Shown here piece after piece: positions 5,702 to 63,037 of a DNA stretch of 64,000 nucleotides; positions within the stretch are counted from its first letter, which is position 1, and every line of letters starts with the position of its first letter. The stretch spans positions 1,302-65,301 of the forward strand of contig CAVJKX010000008.1 in the NCBI GenBank assembly GCA_963650165.1. Direction: 5' to 3'. This DNA comes from a bacterium. Its GTDB lineage: Bacteria; Bacillota; Clostridia; Oscillospirales; Oscillospiraceae. Below the pieces are notes generated by a model. The model ran no database searches, was not told the DNA's origin, and worked only from the letters and a program-made list of their open reading frames with translations. The position numbers and the translations under genes are program-made.

Positions 5702-6126
5702 CTGCTGTTTCCCCCTGTTTCATTATTTTCGCGCTTCCGGCTCTGCTCCGCCGTGCATTCGGGGCAGAGCCCCTCGAAAAGCAGCCTGTGGCGGATGATA
5801 CTGCAGCCGGACAGCTCGGCCGTTTCCCCGTCGAGAAAAGGCTTGTACGGCGTCGGCACGTCAATAACGCTGCCGCATTTTACGCAGAGCATATGATAGT
5901 GCGGCTCCGTGCGCAGGTCGTATCGGTCGGCGCCGGGGACGCGCACATGATTTATGGCCCCGTCCTCCGACAGGCAGCTGAGGTTGCGGTACACCGTGCC
6001 GTGGCTGATCCTCGGGTCTGATGCGCGGACATCCTCATATATCTGCTCCGCCGTGGGGTGATCGCGCCGGGACTGCACCGCCCGCAGGATCAGACGGCGC
6101 TGCCTTGTATCTCTTCTGACAGTCAT
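5695..6126 (-). CDS. Fur-family transcriptional regulator (PerR-like by context)
   Basis: RQRRLILRAVQS...HPTAEQIYEDV...ISHGTVYRNL winged helix; HYHMLCVKCG ... CPEC metal sites. Adjacent to rubrerythrin. Confidence 0.8.
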   Translation of the reverse strand: MTVRRDTRQRRLILRAVQSRRDHPTAEQIYEDVRASDPRISHGTVYRNLSCLSEDGAINHVRVPGADRYDLRTEPHYHMLCVKCGSVIDVPTPYKPFLDGETAELSGCSIIRHRLLFEGLCPECTAEQSRKRENNETGGNSRW

Positions 6127-18996: not shown

Positions 18997-20462
18997 GCTC
19001 TCCCCGCCTCCTTTTTCTTCTTTCCGCGCCTTACGGCAAACACCGTGAACAGGGTGATCGCCGCCGCACAGGCGCAGATGTAAGCGATATCTCCGCGGCC
19101 GATGGCGGAGGCCACCGCGCGGATGTTGTCCTGACTGAGCGCCGACGATTCGACCTTGTCCTGAGCGTAGCCGTCGTCGAAGCCGATGTAATTCGTATAC
19201 TGGAACTTGTCTATGCCCTTTACGGCAAGGCGTGAGCTCGTGCTCGTCGAGCAAAGCAGGACCGACGAGCCCTCGTAAAAGCCGCCGCAGTACAGATAGG
19301 CCGTAGACGCCGTGCCGTCCTGGAGGCAGAGGTCGTTTGCCTTGCCGTTCACGCTGTTGTCCGTCACGATGAGCTTTCCGGAGGCGTTTATGTCGTTCAT
19401 GCTGTCGACATATATGCCGCCGCCGTTTTTCGACGCGCTGTTGTAGCGGTACTCGCCGCCGATGACGAAGACCCTGTCGGCGTTTATGTACAGCGCGCCG
19501 CCGTTTTTCGCGGCGCTGTTGTAGTACATCCTGCAGCTTTTGAGATATGTGCCCTTGCCGGAGTCGCAGTACACGGCGCCGCCGTGGTCCTCCGTCGTTT
19601 TATTGAACGAGAACACGCACTCGGATATCTCGGCCGTGGCAGAGCCGGCAAGGCACACCGCCCCACCCAGCTCATCGCAGCTGTTCGAGTAAAACTCGGA
19701 CGAGGAGAGCTTCAGGCTCCCGCCGTAGGTATAGATCGCGCCGCCGTCGTCCTCCGCGTAGTTGCCCTCGAAGGTCGCGCTGCTCACGGTAACGGCTGCC
19801 GCGTTTGAGTATATCGCGCCGCCGCAGCACTCGCCGGAGGCGTCGTAGGTACGGTTGCCGTAGAACGAGCCGCCGTTTACGTTGAGCTTGATGGTCGAGC
19901 CGAAGGCGCTTATCGCGCCGCCGTCGTCGGTGGATACGCAGTTGAGTATCGTACCGCCGTTGAAGTTGAGCTCGGAGTTATCCAGGAGGACTATGCCGCC
20001 GCCGCGCGCCTTGTTCGCGCCGTTGCAGATGGCGCCGCCCCTGAAGAGCTTGGACACGGTGTACTCGCCGCTTCTCGAGTCGATAATGGTCATGAGCGAG
20101 CCGACGTAGATGACCGCTCCGCCGGAGACCGGTGACGAGAGGTTCCTGTCGATGCTGTATCCGTTGAGGTCGAGCGTCAGCATTTTCGCGCTCGAGTAGC
20201 ACAGCGCACCGTCTCTGTATCCGTCGCCGCTGCCGAAGGAGCCGGAGTCCGACGCCTTCCAGTTCTGACGGAGCGTGAAGGTGACCTCGCCGCTCTTTCC
20301 GAACTCGATCGCTCTTTTCCATGCATCCTCGAAGGAGGTGCAGTCGATCGTCGTGCCGTTTGAGCTGACCGTGGCGCAGATGCCGTCGGCACAGACCGGG
20401 ACGCACAGCAGCGCGCACATGACGAGCGCCAGCGCAAAAGATATGGTTTTTCTAAATTTCAT
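18993..20462 (-). CDS. Pmp-repeat (GGAI/FxxN) right-handed beta-helix protein with signal peptide and C-terminal TM anchor
   Basis: MKFRKTISFALALVMCALLCVPVCA signal. At least 8 GGA(I/V/L) repeats (GGAVIY, GGAICN, GGAISAF, GGAIYSN, GGAIYTY, GGAVCL, GGAVYC, GGALYI, GGGIYV), interleaved with F.GN/F.SN/F.FN. C-terminus IAYICACAAAITLFTVFAV-RRGKKKKE. Start 20462 is preferred (AAGGA RBS 9 nt upstream) over 20471. Confidence 0.8.
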   Translation of the reverse strand: MKFRKTISFALALVMCALLCVPVCADGICATVSSNGTTIDCTSFEDAWKRAIEFGKSGEVTFTLRQNWKASDSGSFGSGDGYRDGALCYSSAKMLTLDLNGYSIDRNLSSPVSGGAVIYVGSLMTIIDSRSGEYTVSKLFRGGAICNGANKARGGGIVLLDNSELNFNGGTILNCVSTDDGGAISAFGSTIKLNVNGGSFYGNRTYDASGECCGGAIYSNAAAVTVSSATFEGNYAEDDGGAIYTYGGSLKLSSSEFYSNSCDELGGAVCLAGSATAEISECVFSFNKTTEDHGGAVYCDSGKGTYLKSCRMYYNSAAKNGGALYINADRVFVIGGEYRYNSASKNGGGIYVDSMNDINASGKLIVTDNSVNGKANDLCLQDGTASTAYLYCGGFYEGSSVLLCSTSTSSRLAVKGIDKFQYTNYIGFDDGYAQDKVESSALSQDNIRAVASAIGRGDIAYICACAAAITLFTVFAVRRGKKKKEAGRA

Positions 20463-20499: not shown

Positions 20500-22734
20500 T
20501 CAGGTCTCTTCGCCCTGAAGCTTTTTCTTTTTGACCTCGACTCCGGCGAAGAAGGCCGCGATGCCGATAACGGCAGCCGCCGCGACACTTATGAGTATGT
20601 GGCTGCTGTTGGAGAACACGCTGCCGGCAAAGGCGTTCTCGTCTACGTTGTAGAACAGATAGATGCCGCTCCTGCCGTCGGCAAAGGTGTAGCCGAGCTG
20701 CTTATTGGTGAGGTTCTGCGCAACGTTTTCGCCGAACATGGAAAGTGCCGCGCTGCTTTCCTTGGGTATGCTGCTGCTTTCGTACTGCACGTTGAGCCCC
20801 TGCGTTACGATGGGGTCGCCGGCGGCCTTGTCCTTTGTGGTGTACAGCGCCACCCACTGGCGGCCGACGTCGCCGTTGAGATCGCCGTAGTCGCCGAGTA
20901 TCTTCGTCGCGTCGGTGACCATTCCGGCGTCGGCGCGGTTGCATTTGACCGCATCGTAATAGGTGTACACCTTTTCGTCATTGTCGTTTGTCGCCTCGTT
21001 CACCATGTGCGAGGGTATCGGCGTAAACTCGGTGTTGTAGTACTCCTGCAGATCCTGCCAGGTGTTCCAGAGGGAGTAGATTATCAGCGCAACGGTGACG
21101 CAGGTCATTATGGCGCCTGCGATGCGGAAGTACCTCGACCAGTCCTTCGCGTTTCCGAGGCTGCGTCCGACTTCGCAATATTTTTCATCGATCGCCTCGA
21201 CCGCACTCGACGTCTGCTGCATTGTCTCGTACTCCGCGGCGTTCATATCCATCTCAATGGCGGTACCGAGGGCCTTGAAGAGGCCGTCGTGCTCCATCTG
21301 CAGAGGGACTGCCGCATTGCTGAAATGAATGCTCGTTCCCCATGCGGCGGCCATGCCGATGATGGAAAGGCCGACGGCGCCGTACAGGATGAGGCTCGTT
21401 ACGGAGATGTAATCGGCTGCGCTCTTAACGGCGCTGCTGCCGGTGGATGCCTGGAGGCGCAGTGCCTCGTTGGTCAGGGCGACGTCGCCGTCGAAGATCG
21501 AGCGGTCAACGCCGTCGTAGACGGAGTTCTTCTTGCCCTCGTAGTAGCTGAAGTCCATTTCGTCCATGGCCTTCTGCATCGCCTCGTCGCCGTTTATGCC
21601 CAGCGACACGATGAAGTACATGGACAGGAAGTCCAGGCAGGCTCTCTGACCCTCGCTGAGGACGGAGACCAGCGGATAGAGCATGTAGCGGTCGGCGTTC
21701 TGGACGTCGTAGTCCTCGCCCGTTATGAGATCGTAGAGGGATACGCCGTCGTTAGTGAGCTTTGAGAGCAGCTCGTACTGTGTGCCGGCAGCGAACCAGT
21801 TGGTGTATTCAAAATCCTCGTGCGCGGTCTGATATGCCTCGACCTCAGCCTCTGTCGAGGAGAAGCTCACGTCCGCGTTCGTATAGGTCTCAAGGAAGCT
21901 TACATAGCCCGCAAGCTTCGAGGCGATGGCCTTTGCGTCCTCGTCGTACTCCGCGGCAAGCTGCTTTTCGGCCTCGTTGACGGTGAGGTTTTTGCTCTCC
22001 ATCAGCTCGTCGAGCATATCGTCGTAGCTTCCGGCGTTTACATACCTGTCCGTCCAGAGCTCATCGCCACTGTCGGCCGCCATGGCTATGGCCTGCTCGA
22101 TAACGAGGATCGCGTCGGCGTTTGCCTGCATGAGTATGGTGGTCATGTCGGCGGTCTTTGCCTGCTCGTCGGCAGACAGGGCGCTCCACTCCTCGTCGCT
22201 GTACTCTTCCTTTATCTTTTTGAGCAGTGCATCGCCCATGAACTGCTCGCTGTCGTCATCATACAGGAGGTTGAGCAGCTCAAAGGCCGCCTCGGCGCGG
22301 GCCTGACCGGCCTTGTAGTTTGCTCTGAACTCGTTGATGGCGACGACGAAGTCGTCTATAAACAGCTTGATGTTTGCTTTCTGCTCGTCGAGCAGCATCT
22401 GGTAGTCCTGAACGCTGTAGCCGCCCTTCATGTTCATAAGACGCATGTCGGTTATGGCTTCCTCGGGATCGCTTGTCGTCGTGTAGCCGAGATACACGGC
22501 GCGGGCCGTCGAGTGCCAGTCGTCCGCGTCCTCGTTGAGGTCGTAGTCGAGTACCTCGTAGCCGTTTTCCGTGAGCCAGGCCTTAGCCTCGTCGGCCGTT
22601 TTGCCGTAGCTTATGACAACGTCCTTTATATACGTTTGCTTTGACGACGCCGCAAGGACGTCGCTGCAGGTGCTGAAGGTGAGTACCACGGCCAGCATAA
22701 GGCTGAGGACCGCTTTAAATGATCTTTTGAGCAT
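20500..22734 (-). CDS. paralog 3 of the tandem 744-aa exported three-TM protein family
   Basis: MLKRSFKAVLSLMLAVVLTFSTCSDVLA signal; KQTYIKDVVISYGKTADEAKAWLTENGYEVLDYDLNEDADDW..AVYLGYTTTSDPEEAITDMRL. Two internal TMs and a C-terminal TM plus KKKK tail. The track ORF 20500..23175 (891 aa) reads into the previous gene; the true ATG at 22734 lies 2 nt after the upstream stop. Confidence 0.85.
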   Translation of the reverse strand: MLKRSFKAVLSLMLAVVLTFSTCSDVLAASSKQTYIKDVVISYGKTADEAKAWLTENGYEVLDYDLNEDADDWHSTARAVYLGYTTTSDPEEAITDMRLMNMKGGYSVQDYQMLLDEQKANIKLFIDDFVVAINEFRANYKAGQARAEAAFELLNLLYDDDSEQFMGDALLKKIKEEYSDEEWSALSADEQAKTADMTTILMQANADAILVIEQAIAMAADSGDELWTDRYVNAGSYDDMLDELMESKNLTVNEAEKQLAAEYDEDAKAIASKLAGYVSFLETYTNADVSFSSTEAEVEAYQTAHEDFEYTNWFAAGTQYELLSKLTNDGVSLYDLITGEDYDVQNADRYMLYPLVSVLSEGQRACLDFLSMYFIVSLGINGDEAMQKAMDEMDFSYYEGKKNSVYDGVDRSIFDGDVALTNEALRLQASTGSSAVKSAADYISVTSLILYGAVGLSIIGMAAAWGTSIHFSNAAVPLQMEHDGLFKALGTAIEMDMNAAEYETMQQTSSAVEAIDEKYCEVGRSLGNAKDWSRYFRIAGAIMTCVTVALIIYSLWNTWQDLQEYYNTEFTPIPSHMVNEATNDNDEKVYTYYDAVKCNRADAGMVTDATKILGDYGDLNGDVGRQWVALYTTKDKAAGDPIVTQGLNVQYESSSIPKESSAALSMFGENVAQNLTNKQLGYTFADGRSGIYLFYNVDENAFAGSVFSNSSHILISVAAAAVIGIAAFFAGVEVKKKKLQGEET

Positions 22735-22736
22735 TT

Positions 22737-24971
22737 TTACGCCTCCCGTATTTTTTTCTTCTGTACGCTTTCGCCGGCGAAGAAGGCTGCGGCACCGACG
22801 ACGATCGCCGCCGCAACGCTTACAAGGATATAGCTGCTGTCGGAAAATACGCTGCCTGCAAAGGCGCTCTCGTCCACGTTGTAGAACAGGTAAATTCCGC
22901 TCTTGCCGTCGGCATAGGTGTAGCCGAGCTGCTTGTTGGTGAGGTTCTGTGCGACGTTTTCGCCGAACATGGAAAGCGCGGTGCTGCTTTCCTTGGGGAT
23001 GCTGCTGCTTTCGTACTGGACCTGCAGGCCGCCCGTTACGATGGGATCGCCCGCCGCCTTGTCCTTGGTGGTATACAGCGCCACCCACTGGCGGCCGACG
23101 TCGCCGTTTATATCGCCGTAGTCGCCGAGAAGCTTGGTCGCATCGGTCACCATTCCGGCATCGACGCGGTTGCACTTGACGGCATCGTAATATGTGTATA
23201 CCTTTTCGTCGTTATCGTTTGTCGCCTCGTTTACCATGTGCATCGGTATCGGCGTAAACTCCGCGTTGTAGTATTCATTCATATCCTGCCAGGTGTGCCA
23301 GAGCGAATATGCCAGCAGCGCGACGGTGACGCAGGTCATTATGACGCTGGCGGCCGTCATGAGCCTCGAGAGCGTGACCTTGCTCGATGCCTGACGCATC
23401 AGATCATTGCCCTTGGCCATGTTCGTGTCGATCTTGCTCTGGAGCGCCGTCTTTTCGGCGTCGGTCACGGCCTTGGCCATTTTCTCGCCTGCCATCTTGG
23501 CAACATCGTAGTTGCCTTCGCCCTCCCAGTACAGCTCCTGTGCCACATCGAGCAGGGTGGAGTTACACTTATATATCCACATTGCCGTCGTGCACACCAT
23601 GGAGAAGCCGAAAACGCCGTACAGGATGAACGAGGTCGTGGAAACGTGATCCCACTCGGAATCGACGGCGTTCTTGCCGGAGGCCGCCTGGAGACGCAGC
23701 GCCTCGTTTGTCATGGCAACGTCGCCGCCGAAGATCGTGCGGTCTACTCCGTCGTAAACGGAGACCTTGTCGCTGTCGCCGGTGAGGAGCTCATAGGACT
23801 CGGCTGCCTTCTTTGCGGCCTCGTCGCTGTTGATGCCTATCGCAACGAGCTGGTACATGGACAGGAAGTCGATGCAGGCTCTCTGACCCTCGGTCAGGAC
23901 GGAGACCAGCGGATAGAGCATGTAGCGGTCGGCGTTCTGGACGTCGTAGTCATCGCCCGTTATGAGATCATAGAGGGATACGCCGTCGTTAGTGAGCTTT
24001 GAGAGCAGCTCGTACTGCGTGCCGGCCGCGAACCAGCTTGTGTAGTCAAAGTCCTCGTGCGCGGTCTGATATGCCTCGACATCCTCTGCGGACGTCGAGA
24101 AGCTTATCTCGGCCTCGGTGTAGCCTTCAAGGAAGGTCTTGTAGTCGGTAAATTTCGAGGCTATGGCCTTTGCCGTCGTGTCGTACTGCGCGGCAAGCTG
24201 CTTTTCGGCCTCGTTGACGGTGATGTTTTTCTCCGCCATCACGGCGTCGAGCATATCGTCGTAGCTTCCGGCGCTCTTATAGCGCTCGGTCCAGGTGCTG
24301 TCGTTCGTATCGGCCGCCATTGCGATGACGTTCTCGATGGTCAGCACCGCGTCGGCGTTTGCCTGCATGAGGATGGTGGTCATGTCGGCGGTCTTTGCCT
24401 GCTCGTCGGCGGACAGGGCCGCAAACTCCTCGTCGGTATACTCCTCTTTTATCTTGCCGAGCAGCAGATCGCCGAGCAGCATGTCCGTATCGTCGTCATA
24501 CAGGAGGTTGAGCAGATCGTGAGCCGCCTTTGCGCGCTCCTGACCGGCTGCGTAGTTTGCCCTGTACTCGTTTACCGCAACGATGAAGTTATTTATGAAG
24601 AGCTTTATGTTTTCCTTCTGCTCGTCGAGCAGCATCTGGTAGTCCTGAACGCTGTAGCCGCCCTTCATGTTCATAAGGCGCATATCGGTTATGGCTTCCT
24701 CGGGGTCATTGGTCGTCGTGTAGCCGAGGTACACGGCGCGCTCCGTCGAGCGCCAGTCGTCCGCGTCCTCGTTGAGGTCGTAGTCGAGTATCTCGTAGCC
24801 GTTTTCGGTGAGCCATGCCTTGGCCTCGTCTGCCGTTTTGCCGTAGCTTATGACGACGTCCTTTATGTACGTCTGCTTTGACGACGCCGCAAAGGCGTTC
24901 GCGCAGGTGCTGAAGGTGAGCACCACCGCCAGCACGAGACTCAGGATCGCTTTAAAGGATTTGTTGAACAT
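22737..24971 (-). CDS. paralog 2 of the tandem 744-aa exported three-TM protein family
   Basis: Same architecture. N-terminal ~125 aa and C-terminal ~200 aa are nearly identical to the neighbours by eye; the segment between TM1 and TM2 is unrelated. GGGAGG RBS. Confidence 0.85.
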   Translation of the reverse strand: MFNKSFKAILSLVLAVVLTFSTCANAFAASSKQTYIKDVVISYGKTADEAKAWLTENGYEILDYDLNEDADDWRSTERAVYLGYTTTNDPEEAITDMRLMNMKGGYSVQDYQMLLDEQKENIKLFINNFIVAVNEYRANYAAGQERAKAAHDLLNLLYDDDTDMLLGDLLLGKIKEEYTDEEFAALSADEQAKTADMTTILMQANADAVLTIENVIAMAADTNDSTWTERYKSAGSYDDMLDAVMAEKNITVNEAEKQLAAQYDTTAKAIASKFTDYKTFLEGYTEAEISFSTSAEDVEAYQTAHEDFDYTSWFAAGTQYELLSKLTNDGVSLYDLITGDDYDVQNADRYMLYPLVSVLTEGQRACIDFLSMYQLVAIGINSDEAAKKAAESYELLTGDSDKVSVYDGVDRTIFGGDVAMTNEALRLQAASGKNAVDSEWDHVSTTSFILYGVFGFSMVCTTAMWIYKCNSTLLDVAQELYWEGEGNYDVAKMAGEKMAKAVTDAEKTALQSKIDTNMAKGNDLMRQASSKVTLSRLMTAASVIMTCVTVALLAYSLWHTWQDMNEYYNAEFTPIPMHMVNEATNDNDEKVYTYYDAVKCNRVDAGMVTDATKLLGDYGDINGDVGRQWVALYTTKDKAAGDPIVTGGLQVQYESSSIPKESSTALSMFGENVAQNLTNKQLGYTYADGKSGIYLFYNVDESAFAGSVFSDSSYILVSVAAAIVVGAAAFFAGESVQKKKIREA

Positions 24972-24973
24972 CG

Positions 24974-27211
24974 TTATGCCTCCCTGACCTTTTTCTTCTG
25001 CACGCTCTCGCCTGCGAAGAAGGCCGCAACGCCGACGACGATCGCCGCCGCAACGCTTATAAGAATGTAGCTGTTATCGGAGAATACGCTGCCTGCAAAG
25101 GCGCTTTCGTCCACGTTGTAGAACAGGTAGATGCCGCTCTTGCCGTCTGCATAGGTGTAGCCGAGCTGCTTGTTGGTGAGGTTCTGTGCGGAGTCCTCGC
25201 CAAACATGGAAAGCGCGGTGCTGCTCTCCTTGGGGATGCTGCTGCTTTCGTACTGGACATTGAGGCCGTTTGTTACGATGGGATCGCCCGCCGCCTTGTC
25301 CTTGGTGGTGTACAGCGCTACCCACTGGCGGCCGACGTCGCCGTTTATATCGCCGAAGTCGCCGAGTATCTTCGATGCGTCGGTCACCATTCCGGCATCG
25401 ACGCGGTTGCACTTTACTGCGTCGTAATAGGTATATACCTTTTCGTCGCTGTCGTTTGTCGCCTCGTTTACCATGTGCGAGGGGATGGGCGTAAACTCCG
25501 CGTTATAGTATTCATTCATATCCTGCCAGGTGTGCCAGAGGGAGTAGACCATCAGCGCGACGGTGACGCAGGTCATTACGATGCTTGCATAGCGGAGGAC
25601 GCTCGCCCAGGTCTCCGCACGCGAGCCGGCCCGTATCGCGGCATCCGCCTGATCTCTGGCCTCGTTGTATTCGGCAGCCTTTGCGCGCAGATCCAAGCCC
25701 TCTGTCTGCTTGTTGACATCATTGAGTATCTCCGCGGCCTGAGCCTTGACTGAAGTAAGTCTCACAACCTCATTCTCGTATTTATTGGCAAGACTGGCCA
25801 TACGGGCGTACTTGATCCACGATGCCGTCGTTGCCGCGAGCGAAACGGCAAAGGATGCATACAGCGCTATCGAGCCGCCGGAGATCTGATCCCACTCGGT
25901 CTCGACGGCGTTCTTGCCGCTGGCTGCCTGGAGGCGCAGCGCCTCGTTGGTCATGGCGACATCGCCGTCGAAGATGGTGCGGTCAATGCCGTCGTAAACG
26001 GAGGTCTTGAGCTTTTCCATCAGCGCATCGTCCATGCTGTCTATCGCGTCCTTGGCGGAGGCGTCGTTGTTTATGCCCAGCGCCACGATCTGATACATGG
26101 GCAGGAACTCGAGGCAGGCTCTCTGACCCTCGGTCAGGCAGGACAGGAGAGGATAGAGCATGTAGCGGTCGGCTCCCTTGACGTCGTAGTCCTCGCCCGT
26201 TATGAGATCATAGAGGGATATGCCGTCGTTAGTGAGCTGCGTCACGACCGCATACTGGGTGCCGGCGGCGAACCAGTTTATGTAGTCGAAGTCCTCGTGC
26301 GCTGCCTTGTACGCCTCTATCTCCTCCTGCGTGTTTTCAAAGGAGATGTCCGAGTTCGTGTATTTTTCAAGGTAGGTCTTGTAGTTTTCTATCTGTGCCG
26401 CGACGGTCTTTGCGTCCTCGTCGTACTCGGCTGCAAGCTGCTTTTCCGCCTCGTTGACGGTGAGGTTTTTCTCCGCCATCAGCGCGTCGAGCATATCGTC
26501 GTAGCTTCCGGCGCTCTCGTATCTGTCGGTCCAGAGCTTATCGCCGGTGTCGGTCGCCGTTGCTATGGTCTGCTCGATGGTGAGCACGGCGTCTGCGTTT
26601 GCCTGCATGAGAATTGTAGTCATGTCGGCGGTCTTTGCCTGCTCGTCGGCGGACAGGGCGTTCCACTCCTCGTCGGTATACTCTTCCTTTATCTTGTTCA
26701 GAAGCGCATCGCCCATGTACTGCTGGCTGTCGTCGTCGTACAGGAGGTTGAGCACCTCGTAGGCTGCCTTCGCACGCTCCTGACCGGCCGCGTAGTTGGT
26801 CCGGTACTCGTTTATTGCGACGATGAAGTTATTCAGGAAGGTCTTTATATTCTCCTTCTGCTCGTCGAGCAGCATCTGGTAGTCCTGAACACTGTAGCCG
26901 CCCTTCATATTCATAAGGCGCATATCGGTTATGGCTTCCTCGGGGTCGCTCGTCGTCGTATAGCCGAGGTACACGGCACGGGCCGTCGAGCGCCAGTCGT
27001 CCGCGTCCTCGTTGAGGTCGTAGTCGAGTATCTCGTAGCCGTTCTCGGTGAGCCAGGCCTTGGCCTCGGCCGCCGTCTTGCCGTAGCTTATGACAACGTC
27101 CTTTATGTACGTCTGCTTTGACGACGCCGCAAAGACGTTTGCACAGGTGCCGAAGGTGAGCACCACGGCAAGCATAAGGCTTATGACTGTTTTAAATGGT
27201 TTTTTCAGCAT
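24974..27211 (-). CDS. paralog 1 (745 aa) of the tandem exported three-TM protein family
   Basis: Same architecture. AAGGAGG RBS overlapping the stop of the upstream gene. Confidence 0.85.
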   Translation of the reverse strand: MLKKPFKTVISLMLAVVLTFGTCANVFAASSKQTYIKDVVISYGKTAAEAKAWLTENGYEILDYDLNEDADDWRSTARAVYLGYTTTSDPEEAITDMRLMNMKGGYSVQDYQMLLDEQKENIKTFLNNFIVAINEYRTNYAAGQERAKAAYEVLNLLYDDDSQQYMGDALLNKIKEEYTDEEWNALSADEQAKTADMTTILMQANADAVLTIEQTIATATDTGDKLWTDRYESAGSYDDMLDALMAEKNLTVNEAEKQLAAEYDEDAKTVAAQIENYKTYLEKYTNSDISFENTQEEIEAYKAAHEDFDYINWFAAGTQYAVVTQLTNDGISLYDLITGEDYDVKGADRYMLYPLLSCLTEGQRACLEFLPMYQIVALGINNDASAKDAIDSMDDALMEKLKTSVYDGIDRTIFDGDVAMTNEALRLQAASGKNAVETEWDQISGGSIALYASFAVSLAATTASWIKYARMASLANKYENEVVRLTSVKAQAAEILNDVNKQTEGLDLRAKAAEYNEARDQADAAIRAGSRAETWASVLRYASIVMTCVTVALMVYSLWHTWQDMNEYYNAEFTPIPSHMVNEATNDSDEKVYTYYDAVKCNRVDAGMVTDASKILGDFGDINGDVGRQWVALYTTKDKAAGDPIVTNGLNVQYESSSIPKESSTALSMFGEDSAQNLTNKQLGYTYADGKSGIYLFYNVDESAFAGSVFSDNSYILISVAAAIVVGVAAFFAGESVQKKKVREA

Positions 27212-47425: not shown

Positions 47426-47442
47426 AGCGGATGCGAGGAAAA

Positions 47443-50331
47443 ATGATAAAGGAAAAAATAAAACTCAGCGAGGTTGAGCCGGGCGGCTGCGCAGCCGGCT
47501 TCGAGCTTGAAAAAAAGGAATACATCGAAGCAAAAAAAGCGCAGCTTTACACCCTGCGGCACAAAAAAAGCGGCGCGGAGCTCCTGTACTTCGACAGAGC
47601 CGACAGGAACATGACCTTCGCCGTCACCTTCAAGACCCTGCCGGAGGACGACACCGGCGTTTTCCACATTCTTGAGCACAGCGTCCTCAACGGCTCGAAG
47701 AAATACCCCGTCAAGGAGCCCTTCGTTTCGCTGCTGCAAAGCTCGATGCAGACGTTTTTAAACGCCTACACCTTCGGCGACAAGACCATGTTCCCCGTTT
47801 CGAGCCGAAACGAACAGGATCTATATAACCTCATGAGCGTGTATCTCGACGCGGTGTTCTGCCCCGCCATTTACGAAAAGCCCGAGATATTCATGCAGGA
47901 GGGCTGGCATTACGAATTTGACGAGGCAACCGGCGAGGCAAGCTATAACGGCGTCGTTTTCAGCGAGATGAAGGGCGCATATGCCGACGTTGAGCGGCTC
48001 ATGGGCGACGCTGCCGACAGGCTCCTGTATCCCGACACCTGCTACGGCTTTTCCTCCGGCGGCCTGCCGGAGAAGATAACCGAGCTCAGCTACGAGCAGT
48101 TCATAGCGGCGCACAGACGCTTCTACCACCCCTCGAACGCACGCTTCTTCCTCGACGGGCACATGGACATAGAAAGCGTTCTCGAATACATAGACGGCGA
48201 ATACCTCTGCAAATACGACCGCCGCGAGCCCGACTTCGGCTTTGCCGAGCAGAAGCCCGTCACCGGCGAGGCTACGGTCTTCTTCGAGCCCGCCGAGGGC
48301 GAGGACGGGCATGCGCACATGGTCATATCAAAGCTGCTGTGCCGCTTTGACGATATTGAAAAGCTCTATGCCGCCAAGATCCTTGCCGACTATTTCACCG
48401 GCTCGAACGAAGCGCCGCTCAAGCGCGCGTTTCTCGAAAAGGGTCTTGCGCAGGACGTCGGCCTCGAGATAAGCGACGGCATATATCAGCCCTCGCTGTC
48501 CCTTGTCGTGCTCAATTCCGCCGCCGACCGCTTCGGGACGATACGCGGCTTTGTTCCGGAAACGGTCAGGGCGCTGACCGCGGCGGGGCTTGACCGCAGT
48601 GCGCTGCGCGCGTGCATCGAGCGCTTTGCCTTCAACTGCCGCGAGGTCACCGAGCCCTACGGCGTGGAGCTTGCAATAAAGGCGCTCGACGGCTGGCTCT
48701 ACGGCGGCGATCCGATGATGCATATAGACAACGCGCGGGTGTTCGATTCCCTGCGTGAAAAGCTCGGCACCGATTATTTCGAGGCTCTCGCGCTCGAAAT
48801 GCTCGCGGATGCCGACGATAAGTGCTATGTATACGCTCTGCCGTCGAAAACGAAGGTCGCCGACGATGCGGCGAAGGAAAAGGCGCGTATCGCGGCGCAG
48901 ACGTCCGCCTGGGACGGGCAGCGGCTCCGGCGCGAAAAGCTTGCCGTTGAGAAAATGCAGCAGTGGCAGCAGAGCCGCGACAGCGAGGAGGCTCTTGCGA
49001 CGCTGCCCGTGCTCGAGCTTGCCGACGTGCCGCGCGAGGTCGAGCCCATCGGCGCCGAGCCCTGCGATATCGCGTCCCGCCCGGCACTGCGCGTCAGCAC
49101 CGGCGCGGACGGGATAGTCTACCTCAACCTGTATTTCGACATCTCCGATTTCGGCACGCAGGAGCTGCGGCAGGCCGGCATCATCGCCTCCTGCCTCGGC
49201 GAGCTGCGCACGAAAAATCTCGGCGCATCGGAGCTTCAGAACAAAATAAAAGCCACCCTCGGCGGTCTCGGCGCAAGGGTGGAGCTCATCTCGCACGAGG
49301 GCGAGCTGGATAAATGCACGCCGTACCTGCTGGTTTCGGCGAGTATGCTGCGCGAAAACACGGCTTCCGCGGCCGAGCTTCTGACCGAGATACTCAAGAA
49401 CACCTGCTGGGACGAGTGCGGCAGGATCGGCGAGCTGCTCGTGCAGACCGATTACTTCCTCAAACAGTCGCTGATCGGAAACGGGCATAATTTTGCCGTG
49501 ACCAAGGCGCTGTCGGGCTTTTCGGCCGAGGGTGCTCTGCGCGAGGCGCTTGAGGGCGAGAGCTTTGCCGGCTGGCTGTCGGAGCTTACCGCCGGCTTTG
49601 ACGAAAACGGCGCTGAGTTCTGCGCGGAGCTCAATGCGCTTGCCGGCCGGGCCTTTGCCGCGAACAGGCTGTTTATCGGCTTCGGCGGCGATCCCGACAC
49701 GGCCGCGATAGAGAGCCTTGTCCGCGCGCTTCCCGAAACGGTGCGCGGTGAGCCCGCCGCGGCGCCCGCCGGAGCGGAGAAAAGCTGCACGGTCGAGATA
49801 CCTGCGGACGTCGGCTTCAGCGCGCTCGGCGGGAACCTCTTTGCCTTCGGCGGAGCGTACTCCGGCGCGTGGCCCGTGCTGGCCTCGCTGATGACCTTCG
49901 GCTATCTCTGGGGCGCCGTGCGCGTTCAGGGCGGAGCCTACGGCACGGGCATGAATGTGCGCGCGAACGGCGATATCTTCTGCTACTCCTACCGCGACCC
50001 GAATCTGCCGGCCTCGGCCGAGGCGTTTGCGGCGCTGCCGGATGTGCTCGGACAGATGCTCGCGGAGGATATGCCGCTTGACGATATCATCATCGGCACG
50101 GTCAACACGACCGATCCCCTGCTCGACCCTGCGGGCATGTGCGAGCTCAGCTGCCGCCGCTGCCTCAAGGGCACGAGCGCACAGAGCATCGCGCAGCTGC
50201 GCCGCGAGATCCTCGACACGAACGCGCAGGAGCTCCGTTCGCTCATCCCGACGCTGCGCAGCTTTGTCGAAAACGGCGTGCTCTGCGCCGTCGGCAACCG
50301 CAGTGCATCCGCCTTCGTAAAGGATTTTTAG
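47443..50331 (+). CDS. M16-family (insulinase, PreP/M16C-like) zinc peptidase
   Basis: GVFHILEHSVLNGSKKYP contains the inverted HxxEH zinc motif. ~960 aa. ATG 47443 (after GAGGAAAA) is preferred over 47431. The stop TAG lies at the edge of repeat cluster R2. Confidence 0.85.
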   Translation: MIKEKIKLSEVEPGGCAAGFELEKKEYIEAKKAQLYTLRHKKSGAELLYFDRADRNMTFAVTFKTLPEDDTGVFHILEHSVLNGSKKYPVKEPFVSLLQSSMQTFLNAYTFGDKTMFPVSSRNEQDLYNLMSVYLDAVFCPAIYEKPEIFMQEGWHYEFDEATGEASYNGVVFSEMKGAYADVERLMGDAADRLLYPDTCYGFSSGGLPEKITELSYEQFIAAHRRFYHPSNARFFLDGHMDIESVLEYIDGEYLCKYDRREPDFGFAEQKPVTGEATVFFEPAEGEDGHAHMVISKLLCRFDDIEKLYAAKILADYFTGSNEAPLKRAFLEKGLAQDVGLEISDGIYQPSLSLVVLNSAADRFGTIRGFVPETVRALTAAGLDRSALRACIERFAFNCREVTEPYGVELAIKALDGWLYGGDPMMHIDNARVFDSLREKLGTDYFEALALEMLADADDKCYVYALPSKTKVADDAAKEKARIAAQTSAWDGQRLRREKLAVEKMQQWQQSRDSEEALATLPVLELADVPREVEPIGAEPCDIASRPALRVSTGADGIVYLNLYFDISDFGTQELRQAGIIASCLGELRTKNLGASELQNKIKATLGGLGARVELISHEGELDKCTPYLLVSASMLRENTASAAELLTEILKNTCWDECGRIGELLVQTDYFLKQSLIGNGHNFAVTKALSGFSAEGALREALEGESFAGWLSELTAGFDENGAEFCAELNALAGRAFAANRLFIGFGGDPDTAAIESLVRALPETVRGEPAAAPAGAEKSCTVEIPADVGFSALGGNLFAFGGAYSGAWPVLASLMTFGYLWGAVRVQGGAYGTGMNVRANGDIFCYSYRDPNLPASAEAFAALPDVLGQMLAEDMPLDDIIIGTVNTTDPLLDPAGMCELSCRRCLKGTSAQSIAQLRREILDTNAQELRSLIPTLRSFVENGVLCAVGNRSASAFVKDF

Positions 50332-51060
50332 TGGCGAATTTTCAGAGGCGAATTTAGGCTGTACTTATACGCATATTGCGGGTGCCCGGTTCGAAACGAT
50401 GGAGGAAACTACGGCGTTTCGCTGCCCGTAAGTGCGGGAAAAAGATTTGTTTATCCTCTTGTATCGGTTTCCGCGCGGCCGCCGGTCGGGCTGATGCGAA
50501 AATCAGCACGATCTCACGGGATACGAAACGTATTTATTTTCTCCATTGTTTCCGGTCGTGCTGACGCAATAAATGTATCGGCACAATGTGAAAACGCCTA
50601 TGAAAATCCGTGCGCAGAGCGCACACCGCAATTATTCACTATTCATTATTCACTCTTCATTCGCAGAAGCGGAGCTTCTGCGCTGCCTTCCCCTTGCGGA
50701 GCCTGAGGGGAAGGTGTCAGCCGCAAGGCTGACGGATGAGGTGTAACCAAATCCTTTGCTGTCAGGCAAACACAAATTCCCAGTAAGGAACTTAATCCAA
50801 TATTAAACGAGAAAAAGACAGTGCAGACTAAAAATCTGCACTGTCTTTTATCAACATTGTTGCGGCTTGCGCCGCAATTTTATTACACCTCTTCAGTCAC
50901 CTTCGGTGACAGCTTCCCCTCAAGCTCCGCAAGTGGAAGCCAAGGGTGCAAAACATTACTCCGCACTCGCGTTACGCGGCAGTGATCTTATTTCGTCGGC
51001 AGTAACGATACCGGGCGCCCGCAATAAACGTATAGGTACAGCCTAAATGCGCCTCTAAAA
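50326..51060. repeat. mosaic intergenic repeat cluster R2 (~735 bp), bounded by inverted terminal modules
   Basis: Left end TTCAGAGGCGAATTTAGGCTGTACTTATACGCATATTGCGGGTGCCCGGT; right end is its inverted counterpart ACCGGGCGCCCGCAATAAACGTATAGGTACAGCCTAAATGCGCCTCT. The interior is a chain of short hairpins (CTTCCCCT..AGGGGAAG, GTCAGCC-gcaa-GGCTGAC, GTCACC-gaa-GGTGAC, AAGACAGTGCAGA..TCTGCACTGTCTT). No ORF is conserved between copies. Confidence 0.8.
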
Positions 51061-51336
51061 AACAGGGCAGATGCCGCAGACCTCCATGGTGTCGGTATCG
51101 ACGATGCAGCACAGCTTCATGCCGCAGGCGCAGTCGTAGCTGCCGGGGAGGGTGACCTCGGCGTAGCTGCCGGTGCAGTCGGTGAAGAGCTCCACGGCCG
51201 CGCTGGCCGCACTGAAGCCGCTGCCTGCTTCACGCACGGCGGCCTCCGCCGCATCGCGGCACAGAGCTTCCTCGCTGCGGAACAGTGCTCCGAGGATGTT
51301 GGTGATTATATTTACGTTGGTCATAGTGTTTTTCAT
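51055..51336 (-). CDS. small Cys-rich protein (93 aa), unknown function
   Basis: Strong AGGAGG RBS 8 nt upstream of the ATG. 8 Cys, concentrated in the C-terminus (YDCACGMKLCCIVDTDTMEVCGICPVF). The stop codon lies inside the terminal module of R2. Confidence 0.6.
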   Translation of the reverse strand: MKNTMTNVNIITNILGALFRSEEALCRDAAEAAVREAGSGFSAASAAVELFTDCTGSYAEVTLPGSYDCACGMKLCCIVDTDTMEVCGICPVF

Positions 51337-53639: not shown

Positions 53640-53725
53640 ATATCCGTTTTTAATATCCGTTTAAATTTAATTTATCGCAGGTTTAAACCGCCCTCCTATA
53701 CTGGCATTGTTCAGTAAGGAGGGTT

Positions 53726-54176
53726 TTTTTAGAGGCGCATTGAGGCACCTACGGATACGGATATCTCTGGTAGCCCGGTATCGAGACTGCGGAGGAAATA
53801 AGAACGCTGCCGCGTAACGCAAGCGTACAGTAATGGGGCGCACCCATGCCTTCCCCTTGCGGAGCTTGAGGGGAAGCCAAGGGCCTCGCCGATTTCAGTG
53901 CGCAGACAGACACTTCGAGCGGAACGGGCAAGATAAGTTCCCTGCAAAGACCGGCGCAGCTTTTTAGATACTGCAAAAAACACAGCGCAAGCTCATGGGA
54001 CGCGAGATATATTTATTTATTCCAATGTTTCGATACCGGGCACCTGCAATATGCGTATCCGTAGATGCCTCAATACGCCACTGAAAAAGCGCGAAACGTA
54101 TTTATTTACACCATCGTTTCGATACCGGGCTGACGCAATAACCGTATAGGCAGGGCGTTAAAGCGCCGCTAAAAAA
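53726..54176. repeat. mosaic intergenic repeat cluster R3
   Basis: One forward T-module (TTTAGAGGCGCATTGAGGCACCTACGGATACGG...CCCGGTATCGAGAC) and two reverse T-modules (ending ...GCCTCAATACGCCACTG at ~54080 and ...AAAGCGCCGCTAAA at ~54176), plus the CTTCCCCTTGCGGAGCTTGAGGGGAAG hairpin. Confidence 0.75.
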
Positions 54177-58294: not shown

Positions 58295-58656
58295 TTTCAG
58301 TGGCGCATTGAGGCTGCACCTATACGGAAACTGCGGGTGCCCGGTATCGTTACAATGGCATAAGCAAAAACGTTTCGCGCCCCATTAGTGCGCAATAATG
58401 TTTCGCACCCTTGGCTTCCCCTTCGAGGGGAAGCTGTCACCGAAGGTGACTGAAGAGGTGTAATCAAATCCTTTGCCGTCAGGCAAACACAAATTTTCTG
58501 TAAGGAACTTATTTTGCCCGTTCCACCTGCCACGGTTTCCTGCGCGGCTTCCGGTCGGGCTGACGCAAACAGCGTATCGGTACGGTGTGAAAACGCCTCT
58601 GAAAAAGCCTTCCCCTTGCGGAGCCTGAGGGGAAGGCTTTTTCAGAGGCGTTTTCA
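58295..58656. repeat. mosaic intergenic repeat cluster R4, ending in a perfect 29-bp-stem palindrome
   Basis: Starts 1 nt after the GT2 stop with TTCAGTGGCGCATTGAGGCTGCACCTATACGG. Nt 58588-58656 read TGAAAACGCCTCTGAAAAAGCCTTCCCCT-tgcggagcctg-AGGGGAAGGCTTTTTCAGAGGCGTTTTCA. Confidence 0.8.
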
Positions 58657-58674
58657 AGCGCTTTTCGGGCATAG

Positions 58675-58708
58675 AAAAAGTCCGCCGTAATTATTACGGC
58701 GGACTTTT
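58675..58708. terminator. bidirectional terminator next to tRNA-Ala
   Basis: A5-GTCCGCCGTAA-tta-TTACGGCGGAC-T5. Confidence 0.75.
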
Positions 58709-58784
58709 TGGTGGACCCGAAGGGATTCGAACCCTCGACCTCTCGGATGCGAACCGAACGCGCTCCCAGCTGCGCTACGGGCCC
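58709..58784 (-). tRNA. tRNA-Ala (anticodon CGC), CCA encoded
   Basis: Minus strand GGGCCCGTAGCGCAGCTGGGAGCGCGTTCGGTTCGCATCCGAGAGGTCGAGGGTTCGAATCCCTTCGGGTCCACCA. G3:U70 Ala identity pair; anticodon loop TTCGCAT. Confidence 0.9.
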
Positions 58785-58877: not shown

Positions 58878-59175
58878 GCGGCTTTTGACAAGGCTGCACT
58901 AGTTGGGGAGCCAGCGGTGCCCTGTAACCTGCAATCCGCTACAGCAGGAATGAATTCCCAACATAGGATCTGTCATGTGTCGTCTGACCCCGGTAAGCAG
59001 CGTTGACGAGCCGGTCTCGCGCAACGGAAACCCGTGAACCATGTCAGGCGGGGAACCGAGCAGCATTAAGCGGTGTTTTTCGTGTGCCGCGAGGGTGCCG
59101 GTTCTGAGCCGGCTGCCGGCGTAACGGGCATATGTCAGTTTTCAAAGTTGGGTGTGCAGTCTTGTCAAGGGCCGC
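58878..59175 (+). ncRNA. ffs: signal recognition particle RNA, long Bacillus/Clostridium type (scRNA)
   Basis: GGGGAGCCAGCGGTGCCCTGTAACCTGCAATCCGCTACAGCAGG and GTGAACCATGTCAGGCGGGGAACCGAGCAGCATTAAG match the Alu-domain and domain-IV sequences I recall from B. subtilis scRNA. The 5' GCGGCTTTTGACAAGGCTGCAC pairs with the 3' GTGCAGTCTTGTCAAGGGCCGC. Position upstream of dnaX is canonical. Ends are approximate. Confidence 0.85.
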
Positions 59176-60928: not shown

Positions 60929-61255
60929 ATGGCAAAAGGCGGATTTCGCGGCGCTATGGGCGGCGGCAACATGATGAAGCAGGCTCAGAAGATGCAGGAA
61001 GAGTTCATGAAAATGCAGCAGGAGCTCGAGAACAGGGAGTTTGTCTCCACCGTCGGCGGCGGCGCCGTTAAGGCGACCATGATCGGCACCCGCGCGCTCA
61101 AGAGCATAGAGATCGACCCCTCGGCGGTCGATCCCGACGATCTCGAAATGCTTCAGGACATGATCGTCGCCGCGGTCAACGAGGCGATCACCCAGAGCGA
61201 GAACGCGACCAACGAGGCAATGAGCAAGCTCACCCCCATGGGCTTTCCTTTCTAA
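60929..61255 (+). CDS. ybaB: YbaB/EbfC-family nucleoid-associated protein
   Basis: NMMKQAQKMQEEFMKMQQELENREFVSTVGGGAVKATMIG...AVNEAI. Canonical position after dnaX. Confidence 0.9.
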   Translation: MAKGGFRGAMGGGNMMKQAQKMQEEFMKMQQELENREFVSTVGGGAVKATMIGTRALKSIEIDPSAVDPDDLEMLQDMIVAAVNEAITQSENATNEAMSKLTPMGFPF

Positions 61256-62018
61256 AGGCGTTTTTTCAGAGGCGCACGGACGCACCTACAGATACGCTTA
61301 TTGCCGGTGCCCGGTTCGGTACATTGGTGGAAACTACGGCGTTTCGCGCCCCATTAGTACGCAGTAATGGTTTTGCGCCCTTGGCTTCCCCTTGCGCAGC
61401 CTGAGGGGAAGCTGTCACCGAAGGTGACTGAAGAGGTGTAATTAAATCGCGGCGCAAGCCGCAACAATGCTGATAAAAGACAGTGCAGATCATAGTCTGC
61501 ACTGTCTTTTTCACGCTTAATATTAAATTCAACTTCCGATTTGTAGTGAATTTGTGTTTGCCTGACGGTAAAGGATTTAATTACACCTCATCCGGCTCGC
61601 TTACGCGACCCACCTTCCCCTCAAGCTCCGCAAGGGGAAGGCAGGGCGCAGGCTGCGCCTGCAAATGAAGATTGAAGATTGAATATCGAATAATGAATAA
61701 TTGCGGTGTGCGCAGAGCGCACGGATTTTCAGAGGCGTTGCTGCGCCGTGCCGATACGCTATTTGCGTCAGCCCGACCGGAAGCCGCGCAGGAAACCATC
61801 ACAAACAAATCTTTCTCCGCACTCGCGTTGCGCGGCAGTGTTCTTATTTTGTCGGCGGTAACGATACCGGGCCACCAGAGATACCCGTATCCGAGGCTGC
61901 GTCAATGCGCCTCTGAAAAAGCGCGAAACGTTCTTATTTATACCATTGTCTCGATACCGGGCACCGGCAGTCTCTGTATAGGTACAGCCTTAATGCGCCT
62001 CTGAAAAAGCGCCTCTAA
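61256..62018. repeat. mosaic intergenic repeat cluster R5 (~760 bp)
   Basis: Uses the same module set as R2. 61266-61800 matches the reverse complement of ~50400-51057 module by module, for example GATAAAAGACAGTGCAGATCATAGTCTGCACTGTCTTTTT and AATAATGAATAATTGCGGTGTGCGCAGAGCGCACGGATTTT. One forward T-module lies at the left end and two reverse T-modules at the right. It overlaps the stop of the YeiH-family gene. Confidence 0.8.
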
Positions 62019-63037
62019 ATAAGTGAGAGGGCGTGCTGCATTGCGATGGCGACGCCGGTGATGCCGAGCCAGCAGCAGAAGCCGAGCAGCAGCGGCTTGC
62101 CGCCGGTTTTTATGAGCTTGACGGGATTTGTGTTCAGGCCGATGGCCGCCATGGCGAGGACTATCATGAACTTGCTCAGCTCCTTGAGCGGATTGAACAC
62201 GCTTGCATCGACGCCCAGCGCCTGCGCAACGGTCGTGACGACCGAGGCGAGGATGAAGTAGAGGATGAACATCGGGAAAACGCTCTTCAGGCTGACCTTC
62301 TTACCCGACTCGCCGGCAGATTTTTTCGAGCGTATGAGCGCGAGGACGAGGGTGATGGGTATGATCGCGAGTGTACGCGTGAGCTTGACGGTGACGGCCT
62401 TATCGAGCGTCTGCGAACCGAGCCCCCACATGCTGTCCCAGGTCGAGGCGGCGGCGGTGACGGAGGAGGTATCGTTGACGGCAGTACCGGCAAAGATGCC
62501 GAAGGCCTCGCCGGAGGTAGTCGAAAAGCCGATGAGCGTGCCCATGAGCGGGAAGATGAGCGCCGCGATGACGTTGTAGAAGAAAATGACGGATATCGCC
62601 TGCGCGACCTCCTCGTCGCTCGCGTCGATGACCGGCGCGGTGGCGGCGATGGCCGAGCCGCCGCAGATCGACGAGCCCACGCCGATGAGGGTGGATATCT
62701 TCGCGGGGATCTTCAGCGCCCTGCACATGATAAACGCGACCAGCAGCGAGGTGCTTATCGTGCTGAGGATGATCGGCAGCGACTGCACGCCCGTGCGGCC
62801 GATGACCGCGAGGTTCATACCGAAGCCGAGCAGTATGACCGCCCACTGGAGTATCTTCTTCGATGTGAATTTGATACCCGCCTCGAAGGGGGCGCGGTTT
62901 GTGAGGAACATGCCGACGATCATGCCGAGCAGGATGGAGATAACGGGTCCGCCGACGACTGCGAATTTGCGGCCGAGCAGCCACGCCGGGACCGCGATAA
63001 CAAGACACAGCAGCAGTCCCTTCAGCTTTTCTTTCAT
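62015..63037 (-). CDS. YeiH/UPF0324-family membrane protein (putative sulfate exporter family)
   Basis: 340 aa polytopic. [17 protein letters not shown] motif typical of the family. Confidence 0.75.

Follow-up and report, generated by a model that had tools for sequence, protein, structure and literature searches.

A modular repeat mosaic between two convergent genes of an Oscillospiraceae genome, probably a BIME-like member of a REP/RAYT-associated family

Here we describe a non-coding element in the genome of an Oscillospiraceae bacterium (assembly GCA_963650165.1, contig CAVJKX010000008.1, positions 1,302 to 65,301 of the forward strand; these 64 kb are hereafter called the window). It occupies the whole gap of 738 bp between two convergent genes, with exact limits 50325-51062 that include a 14-nt partial end copy at 50325-50338, and it is a mosaic of reusable repeat modules, not a single transposon or RNA gene. 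Probably, it is a mosaic similar to the bacterial interspersed mosaic elements (BIMEs), drawn from a modular superfamily associated with repetitive extragenic palindromes (REPs) and REP-associated tyrosine transposases (RAYTs), which has become the shared 3' region and probable bidirectional terminator of the two genes.

The repetitive nature of the region was evident in a BLAST depth profile, where each bin of 30 nt within 50325-51062 is matched by 7-155 copies elsewhere and the depth drops to zero in both flanks; no base of the region is unique to it. A preliminary description of this DNA, made by reading the sequence alone, had placed a non-coding structured element at 50326-51060, which is nearly right, and no open reading frame (ORF) of more than 70 aa was found inside the true limits. 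The inverted-repeat ends that it had reported are real (50339-50390 and 51010-51061, 52 nt, 88% complementary), and so are all of its listed hairpins and its AT-rich tract, each at the place given. Its end motifs are found 4 and 7 times in the window, where shuffled sequences predict 0.00 and 0.23, and the related clusters that it had pointed out are found at 2712, 53724, 58295 and 61256. The left and right halves had been described as the same modules in opposite orientation; modules of opposite orientation do occur, but not as a single mirror, since an inner palindrome of 259 bp (50684-50942, centred at 50831) stands next to a separate head-to-head doublet that makes up the left ~270 bp (50339-50606). 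Profile search detected three end modules in the region, not two.

The T-module family

The commonest unit of the family, the T-module, is about 90 nt long. Its 5' boundary, TTTT(C/T)AG(A/T)GGCG, is razor-sharp, with zero information upstream of it, and its 3' end is ragged. Two types were distinguished, A (…CCCGGTATCG…) and B (…CCCGACCGG…). T-modules are mostly arranged as head-to-head doublets of 155-400 bp (65 pairs), and they also occur solo and as direct tandems of 88 nt. A 14-nt stutter (TTTTTAGNGGCGNN) precedes about 11% of the T-ends. In locus L004 it matches exactly the 14 nt with which the L076 module at the same orthologous site begins, which marks it as the remnant of an older, replaced module. 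A hairpin directly upstream of the T-run was also considered as a target, and it accompanies 15.5% of the ends and 7.4% of random positions, a difference of only 2-fold that defines no target.

The distribution of the family was studied by scanning a species-representative genome collection with a loose T-module pattern (112 loci), followed by an nhmmer profile. About half of the pattern loci were chance matches in unrelated phyla, and the profile detected no T-module in ~66 unrelated loci. A total of 218 T-modules was found in the window and ~46 loci from at least 12 related metagenome-assembled genomes (MAGs), with ~200 of them outside the window, where the density reaches 9 per 8 kb. The carriers are gut Clostridiales/Oscillospiraceae MAGs (W0P29.010, UBA7273, UMGS815, CAG:24053_14 and two Hadza MAGs), together with the bins H07631, G02621 and SRR1747065_bin.49; as the window genes are 85-88% identical to some of the carrier loci, these are related species. 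The family was absent from viral contigs (7 pattern matches, all by chance) and from the nearest metagenomic relatives (74-77% aa identity) of the PreP-like gene that flanks the mosaic. It had initially been regarded as genome-specific, and this does not hold: present in related species and absent from viral contigs and PreP relatives, it is common to a clade. Some T-module-rich loci, 70-90% identical to Oscillospiraceae MAG contigs, come from assemblies labelled Collinsella aerofaciens, Escherichia coli, Bacteroidaceae or Phascolarctobacterium (L001, L088 and L101 of CAVGXR01; L002, L025, L033 and L055 of CAVGWF01; L007 and L110 of CAVDFD01; L021 of CAVHZB01), and these bins look contaminated or mislabelled. 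A census of gene orientation around the clusters was unreliable, spurious ORFs being common in this high-GC DNA, and was not used.

REP hairpins and RAYT genes in sister genomes

A search for GTAG-footed hairpins led to two abundant canonical REPs, found only in T-module loci: REP-1 (TGTAGGGAAYGGGCTTGCCCRTTCCGC, 27 copies) and REP-2 (CGTAGGGGCGAGCATTGCTCGCCC, 14 copies). REP-1 lies at a fixed distance of 82-84 nt from the type-B end, which gives 10 doublets the oriented architecture A> REP1 <B. The REP sequence variants track the genome, with GGAACGGATTTATCCGTTCC in UBA7273 and CAG:24053_14 and GGAAYGGGCTTGCCCRTTCC elsewhere. An unplanned positive control was provided by three loci where the T-pattern had matched by chance, L039 (5196-5340, Stenotrophomonas maltophilia), L045 (a Methylococcales MAG) and L102 (another MAG), as these matches adjoined classical GTAG-footed REP arrays.

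The search for a RAYT gene, which the preliminary description had advised, was successful in sister genomes, where the gene is accompanied by REPs and T-modules, though not in the window. It was first located by tblastn with an E. coli RayT sequence, and the match was verified independently by Pfam and NCBIfam. The ORF of L087 (5461-5922, UBA7273) encodes a 153 aa protein that matches Pfam Y1_Tnp with 37.9 bits (gathering cut-off 23); its best NCBIfam match is REP_Tyr_transpos (E = 2.5e-18), with 66 bits under the cut-off of 80 bits. It contains the HUH motif (PNHVHAI) and a C-terminal Tyr motif, and it is flanked by identical inverted copies of REP-1 (5349-5375 and 5961-5987) and by T-modules at 5456 and 6109, both on the minus strand. 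More than 700 homologues of ~150 aa were found, some of them named RayT or transposase from Oscillospiraceae/Clostridia. The PDB search gave only a weak match with an IS200 transposase (2f4f, E = 0.0025) and did not reach the E. coli RAYT at E <= 0.01. RAYTs of group 1 were already known from Clostridia (PMC5581495). A second RAYT, which shares 59% identity with the first, is established between remA and gyrB (L125-L129, 2595-3740) with a REP1(+)/T_B(-)/REP1(-)/T_A(-) block on each side; the locus belongs to the dnaN-recF-remA-gyrB region near the replication origin, and its REP/T block of ~260 nt is directly repeated. In the sister genomes a RAYT (HUH/Y1 transposase) gene of single-copy type is thus placed within a cluster of REPs and T-modules, which is the REPtron arrangement known from TnpA_REP (bioRxiv 10.1101/279083).

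The most recent duplication seen in the family concerns a 406-nt unit of L054, present at 7-411 and 2894-3299, with 98% identity between copies that lie 2.9 kb apart. It has exact inverted termini (CACCTCATCC…GGATGAGGTG) and holds a T-module, REP-1 and REP-2, which makes it the likeliest candidate in the family for a unit that is mobile today. A T-module 5' end adjoins one copy on the left side and the second copy on the right side.

Layout of the mosaic and its hairpins

The mosaic opens on the plus strand with the stutter (50325-50338), a partial T-module 5' end (TTTTTAGTGGCGAA) whose TAG (50329-50331) serves the PreP-like gene as its stop codon. Next to it, a type A T-module (…GCCCGGTTCG…) with a sharp 5' boundary (50339-50432, plus strand, nhmmer E = 2.9e-22) forms both the left doublet arm and the left terminal inverted repeat. 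The doublet interior (50433-50505) consists of truncated pieces of further T-modules with 13-25 copies elsewhere, and its segment 50482-50502 repeats the core 50552-50572. A type B-like T-module (…GCACGACCGG…), assigned by profile and type, completes the doublet as its right arm (50506-50606, minus strand). The block between the doublet and the inner palindrome (50610-50681) begins with the hairpin GTGCGC-AGA-GCGCAC (50610-50624), whose loop is inverted in the copy at 61xxx, and continues with an AT-rich tract of two 14-nt tandem units, ATTATTCAC(T/C)(A/C)TTC (50631-50662, plus strand), which is conserved in an inverted sister composite at 61256-62022. It ends with the hairpin GCAGAAGC-GGA-GCTTCTGC (50663-50681), at the place of which the sister composite has a different one, GGCGCAG-GC-TGCGCC.

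The arms of the inner palindrome are H-modules, a unit with 27 copies in the window and the loci, and nested inverted repeats join them (50684-50719 with 50907-50942, and 50730-50752 with 50877-50899). The left one (50685-50743, plus strand) comprises hairpin A (CTTCCCCT-N11-AGGGGAAG, 50687-50713), GTG, hairpin X (GTCAGCC-GCAA-GGCTGAC, 50716-50733) and then GGATGAGGTG. The right one is reversed (50883-50939, minus strand) and reads TTACACCTC, the hairpin GTCACC-TTC-GGTGAC (50896-50910, with the loop GAA on the minus strand) and CTTCCCCT…AGTGGAAG, part of it matching 58425-58469 at 98%. Between the arms lie the hairpin TTTGCTGTCAGGCAAA (TTTGC-TGTCAG-GCAAA, 50755-50770), a terminator-like module at the centre of the palindrome (50812-50849) and the hairpin TTGCGGC-TTG-CGCCGCAA (50860-50877), which is followed by TTTTATT and is terminator-like on the plus strand. 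The third T-module, of type A (50961-51062, minus strand), carries the right terminal inverted repeat. Stem changes of hairpin X are compensatory (GTCGGC/GCCGAC, GTCAGC/GCTGAC, GCCGCC/GGCGGC and GTCGCG/CGCGAC), with 5.6 of 6 positions paired inside single copies, compared with 4.2 of 6 for stems from different copies.

The central module consists of an A-run, GACAGTGCAGA, a loop, TCTGCACTGTC and a T-run, and includes a perfect 15-bp hairpin (50813-50827/50835-50849). A scan for intrinsic terminators matched 50812-50849 on the minus strand (17 pairs and a T-rich tail), and on the plus strand TTTTAT comes directly after a core stem of 11 bp. The module belongs to a repeated type of its own, AAAAAGA(S)AGTGCAGA-loop-TCTGCACT(S)TCTTTTT, with 13 copies in the window and the loci, variable loops and compensatory stem changes from GAC/GTC to GAG/CTC. 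It sits between convergent genes in all three composites examined (50812-50849, 61473-61510 and L068), and most likely 50812-50849 would terminate both convergent transcripts. No promoter-like site was found in 50325-51062 by the same scan. Rfam 15 gave no gathering-score match in the window, in agreement with the earlier failure to match the element to a named family; the best sub-threshold matches in 50200-51200 (E = 0.4-8) were unrelated miRNA and plastid models.

Gene ends and synteny

The left neighbor of the mosaic is a gene for a PreP-like M16 peptidase of 966 aa (47431-50331, plus strand), and the right one encodes a 93 aa protein (51055-51336, minus strand) that has 63 homologues and a conserved Cys-rich C-terminus, which mark its ORF as a real gene. 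No nucleotide separates the mosaic from either coding sequence, and each gene owes its last codon and its stop to the mosaic. The peptidase ends in …FVKDF*, with TTT-TAG taken from the stutter, where its relatives have …FVKN*; the 93 aa protein ends in …CPVF*, with TTT-TAG taken from the right T-module (51060-51055, minus strand), where its homologues have …CPV and 1-4 variable residues. Both proteins have kept their conserved C-termini, and only the last residue and the stop are derived from the element. The family of the 93 aa protein is small, Cys-rich and devoid of Pfam domains, its core being …TG(N/S)YAEV.L…GMKLCCIVDTDTMEV.G.CPV, and its gene adjoins the same histidine kinase/response regulator pair in relatives too.

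Flush placement is found throughout the family: among 75 long ORFs directly adjoining a T-end, 46 have their stop codon at +6 (TAG), +17 (TGA/TAA) or within the stutter. The idea that the modules carry designed stop codons was rejected: stops in two frames occur within the first 30 nt of 48% of the modules and ~40% of shuffled sequences, which is no real enrichment, and the third frame is depleted, so that the supply of stops is a side effect of flush placement. Some 11 host ORFs continue into a T-module in the frame that has no early stops, acquiring element-encoded C-terminal tails of roughly 12-40 residues.

In relatives (L134-L138) an ordinary spacer of 75 nt with its own bidirectional terminator separates the small gene from a convergent DUF5693 gene; in the window its partner is the PreP-like gene. 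The two-component system upstream is conserved in the relatives with the 75-nt spacer. The different partner and the ordinary spacer indicate that the mosaic marks a synteny breakpoint, at which it has taken the place of the native 3' flank and introduced a terminator-like hairpin of its own.

Origin of the mosaic

A REP/BIME-like origin has to be weighed first against miniature inverted-repeat transposable elements (MITEs), the other option left by the preliminary description. T-doublets and the 738-bp composite would then be non-autonomous elements with terminal inverted repeats, moved by a DDE transposase encoded elsewhere, and the REP/RAYT system would share nothing with them except the intergenic space. 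We regard this as unlikely. The 52-nt terminal repeats, the 65 head-to-head pairs, the presence of the composite twice with the same ends and the independent occurrence of T-modules and REP-1 would all suit such elements, as would internal-deletion derivatives that keep both ends (a mini-element of ~50 nt in L031 and the 158-bp element at 2712). However, a target-site duplication was found in none of the 37 doublets whose ends were inspected, the T-run and the A-run being parts of the repeat, and T-modules also exist alone and in direct tandems. The two arms of a doublet have 69% identity within an element and 70% between elements; being no more alike than the arms of different doublets, they give no sign of hairpin maintenance or of a foldback origin. 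Moreover, only two head-to-head pairs in ~400 kb are more than 700 bp apart, enclosing htpG and an ortholog of a window gene, and no multi-copy transposase-like ORF was found beside the modules in the same ~400 kb, where ORF clustering gave ABC-transporter paralogues only. Lacking target-site duplications and including solo and tandem modules, the family fits REP/BIME-like elements better than MITEs, with the reservation that the region itself is a composite.

It is also quite unlikely that the modules are immobile, ancient structured spacers, spread only by recombination, gene conversion and rearrangement and kept as terminators and 3'-untranslated region (UTR) stabilisers. Consistent with such a history, orthologous intergenic sites are occupied in different species with different mosaics, so the sites persist while their content is reshuffled; the mosaic stands at a synteny breakpoint, the hairpins covary, the terminator module is shared, and the nearest sampled relative of each window T-module is 80-97% identical (median about 87%). 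Nevertheless, the 5' ends are invariant, arms at separate loci can be 96-100% identical, the 406-nt unit of L054 was duplicated with its inverted termini intact and a RAYT flanked by modules is co-resident. Sharp ends, near-identical duplicates and a module-flanked RAYT point to an enzymatic cut-and-join process. Very improbable is a structured non-coding RNA gene, whether a small RNA or a guide-type RNA of an IS200/IS605-like system, since, despite the very stable folding (z = -11.6 vs shuffles for 50609-51063 as RNA), GNRA-type loops, covarying hairpin stems and a Y1 transposase relative adjoining the family, no Rfam family was matched even at E up to 10, the modules stand in both orientations and in every intergenic context, the dominant T-module does not covary, and neither a promoter-like site in the region nor a TnpB/IscB-type ORF nearby was found.

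Several observations weigh against the REP/RAYT-associated origin that we favor. T-modules are not GTAG hairpins. RNAalifold found no consensus fold for 188 copies on either strand, and mutual information contained only subfamily signals (type A vs type B), with no helices and no covariation, which means that the T-module is conserved as primary sequence. No clean pair of filled and empty sites was found, and the sole candidate (L043 vs L107) is a replacement and not a simple insertion. In the window, with its 14 T-modules, a search allowing 3 mismatches found neither REP-1 nor REP-2, the clusters contain no GTAG hairpin of another kind, and half a REP-1 at 58523-58535 is the only remnant; no RAYT or Y1 motif was seen in these 64 kb, from which alone the genome is known here. 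With no intact REP or RAYT in the window, the RAYT is linked to 50325-51062 by family membership through the sister genomes and not directly. Furthermore, a RAYT lineage with REP-1 arrays has no T-modules (L130-L133), so the two components are separable and any action of RAYT on T-modules is hypothetical. As for RNA evidence, there was no near-identical run and none with more than 14% of the region's words.

The mechanism that we infer for a REP/RAYT-associated family is one in which composites that contain REPs would serve as single-stranded DNA substrates of RAYT, allowing the family to spread and to be reshuffled, with a further contribution from homologous recombination or gene conversion between modules at dispersed sites. 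Units that land beside or inside earlier units would generate mosaics, and the 14-nt stutters would be leftovers of the modules that were replaced. The window copies are probably old and no longer mobile, given that they have no REPs and are no closer than stated above to their nearest sampled relatives. The long hairpins on either side of the central one would give the two convergent genes structured 3' UTRs. A bolder proposal, which we consider doubtful, is that a RAYT-driven system evolved into a general gene-end cassette in this Oscillospiraceae clade. If that were true, T-modules and partner hairpins would insert or recombine exactly at coding-sequence boundaries, in place of the native 3' flanks and of some 5' flanks; one mobile family would provide a considerable fraction of genes with stops, short C-terminal tails and shared bidirectional terminators; dispersed cassettes would drive genome rearrangement; and T-modules would represent a new, non-hairpin class of Y1/HUH substrates.

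Other clusters in the window

The profile search placed the 14 T-modules of the window in 5 clusters, at 2710+, 2869-, 50337+, 50608-, 51063-, 53724+, 54089-, 54177-, 58292+, 58607-, 61261+, 61724+, 61921- and 62009-. The smallest is a minimal T-doublet of 158 bp between two genes (2712-2869), whose right arm is conserved at the orthologous site of L064. The cluster at 53724-54176 holds three T-modules (53724+, 54087- and 54175-) and one H hairpin; a hairpin precedes it, and it ends 7 nt upstream of the ribosome-binding site of the next gene. At 58295-58665 a type A T-module (plus) is followed by an H-module, the half REP-1 hairpin, a type B T-module (minus), hairpin A and a truncated T-module (plus). 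The sister composite (61256-62022, minus strand) is a collinear inverted copy of 50325-51062 with 84% identity (aligned over 61245-62025 in reverse complement) and an extra tandem T-module at 61832-61919. It is also established between convergent genes, both of whose stop codons fall in its end stutters, and several of its hairpins have been swapped for unlike sequences that still form hairpins. The two inverted composites lie 10 kb apart and could mediate inversion of the intervening segment.

A tRNA-Ala(CGC) gene (58709-58784), with its own bidirectional terminator at about 58676-58710, and a large (Bacillus-type) signal recognition particle RNA (58894-59159), followed by dnaX and ybaB, directly adjoin repeat clusters. 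Elsewhere in the window, three tandem paralogues of ~745-890 aa (20500-27211, minus strand), with direct repeats of ~2237 bp that are 76-90% identical, lie beside an ORF of 1614 aa (14410-19254) and are probably a cluster of repeat-rich surface proteins.

Relation to known systems and significance

By analogy, the family can be considered the Clostridial counterpart of the BIME/REP system of E. coli with its RAYT (TnpA_REP). Both form high-copy intergenic mosaics of a few motifs in alternating orientation without target duplication, and both have GTAG-footed, GC-rich REP hairpins and a small Y1/HUH gene flanked by inverted REPs, here in sister genomes; in both, the elements take positions at gene 3' ends, where hairpins can terminate or stabilise transcripts. 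Unlike E. coli, where the unit is a 35-nt hairpin and elements span 40-300 bp, the dominant unit is here the non-palindromic T-module of ~90 nt and elements span 155-750 bp; modules abut coding sequences and supply their stops, the terminator hairpin is a member of the family, the host is Clostridial, and no canonical REP is left in the window. REPINs of Pseudomonas fluorescens likewise are head-to-head doublets that can fold to a long hairpin, with a vertically inherited single-copy RAYT and REP variants that track the genome, but their arms are REPs and their length is ~100 nt, whereas the arms here are T-modules around one asymmetric internal REP and many doublets have no REP. TIRYTs resemble the system in combining a Y1 transposase relative with long inverted-repeat modules besides or instead of simple hairpins; however, the RAYTs found here are flanked by canonical inverted REPs, and the adjacent T-modules are direct and not inverted around the gene.

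ERIC/IRU elements of enterobacteria and Correia elements (CREE) of Neisseria are also imperfect palindromes of 100-250 bp that lie by genes, are co-transcribed, vary in size by internal insertion or deletion and can alter mRNA ends. Correia elements differ in their TA target duplications and 26-bp terminal inverted repeats, ERIC elements in having no linked REP or RAYT, and neither has sequence similarity with the present family. BOX of Streptococcus pneumoniae is another Firmicute intergenic repeat, with modules (boxA, boxB and boxC) in variable numbers, stable structures and no transposase, but its order is fixed (A-Bn-C) and it has no inverted doublets, REPs or RAYT association.

To our knowledge, nearly all work on REP/BIME/REPIN systems has concerned Proteobacteria, and our literature searches found no description of these repeats or of their architecture in gut Oscillospiraceae. 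While the kind of system, REP/BIME/REPIN with RAYT, is already known, the novelty here lies in non-hairpin end modules of 90 nt, in embedded REPs and a portable terminator, in placement flush with gene ends and in a Clostridial host. The repeats break short-read assemblies of abundant gut bacteria, as seen in the Logan short-read contig of the window's own genome, which ends 104 nt past the PreP stop, inside the first T-module, and they are markers of synteny breakpoints. Possible uses lie in strain typing and in modelling, in a Firmicute, the biology of RAYTs and of terminators carried by repeats. If the REP/RAYT-associated origin is right, as we think probable, the family would be a far larger, more modular version of the REP/RAYT idea, in which the elements define the exact 3' ends of genes.

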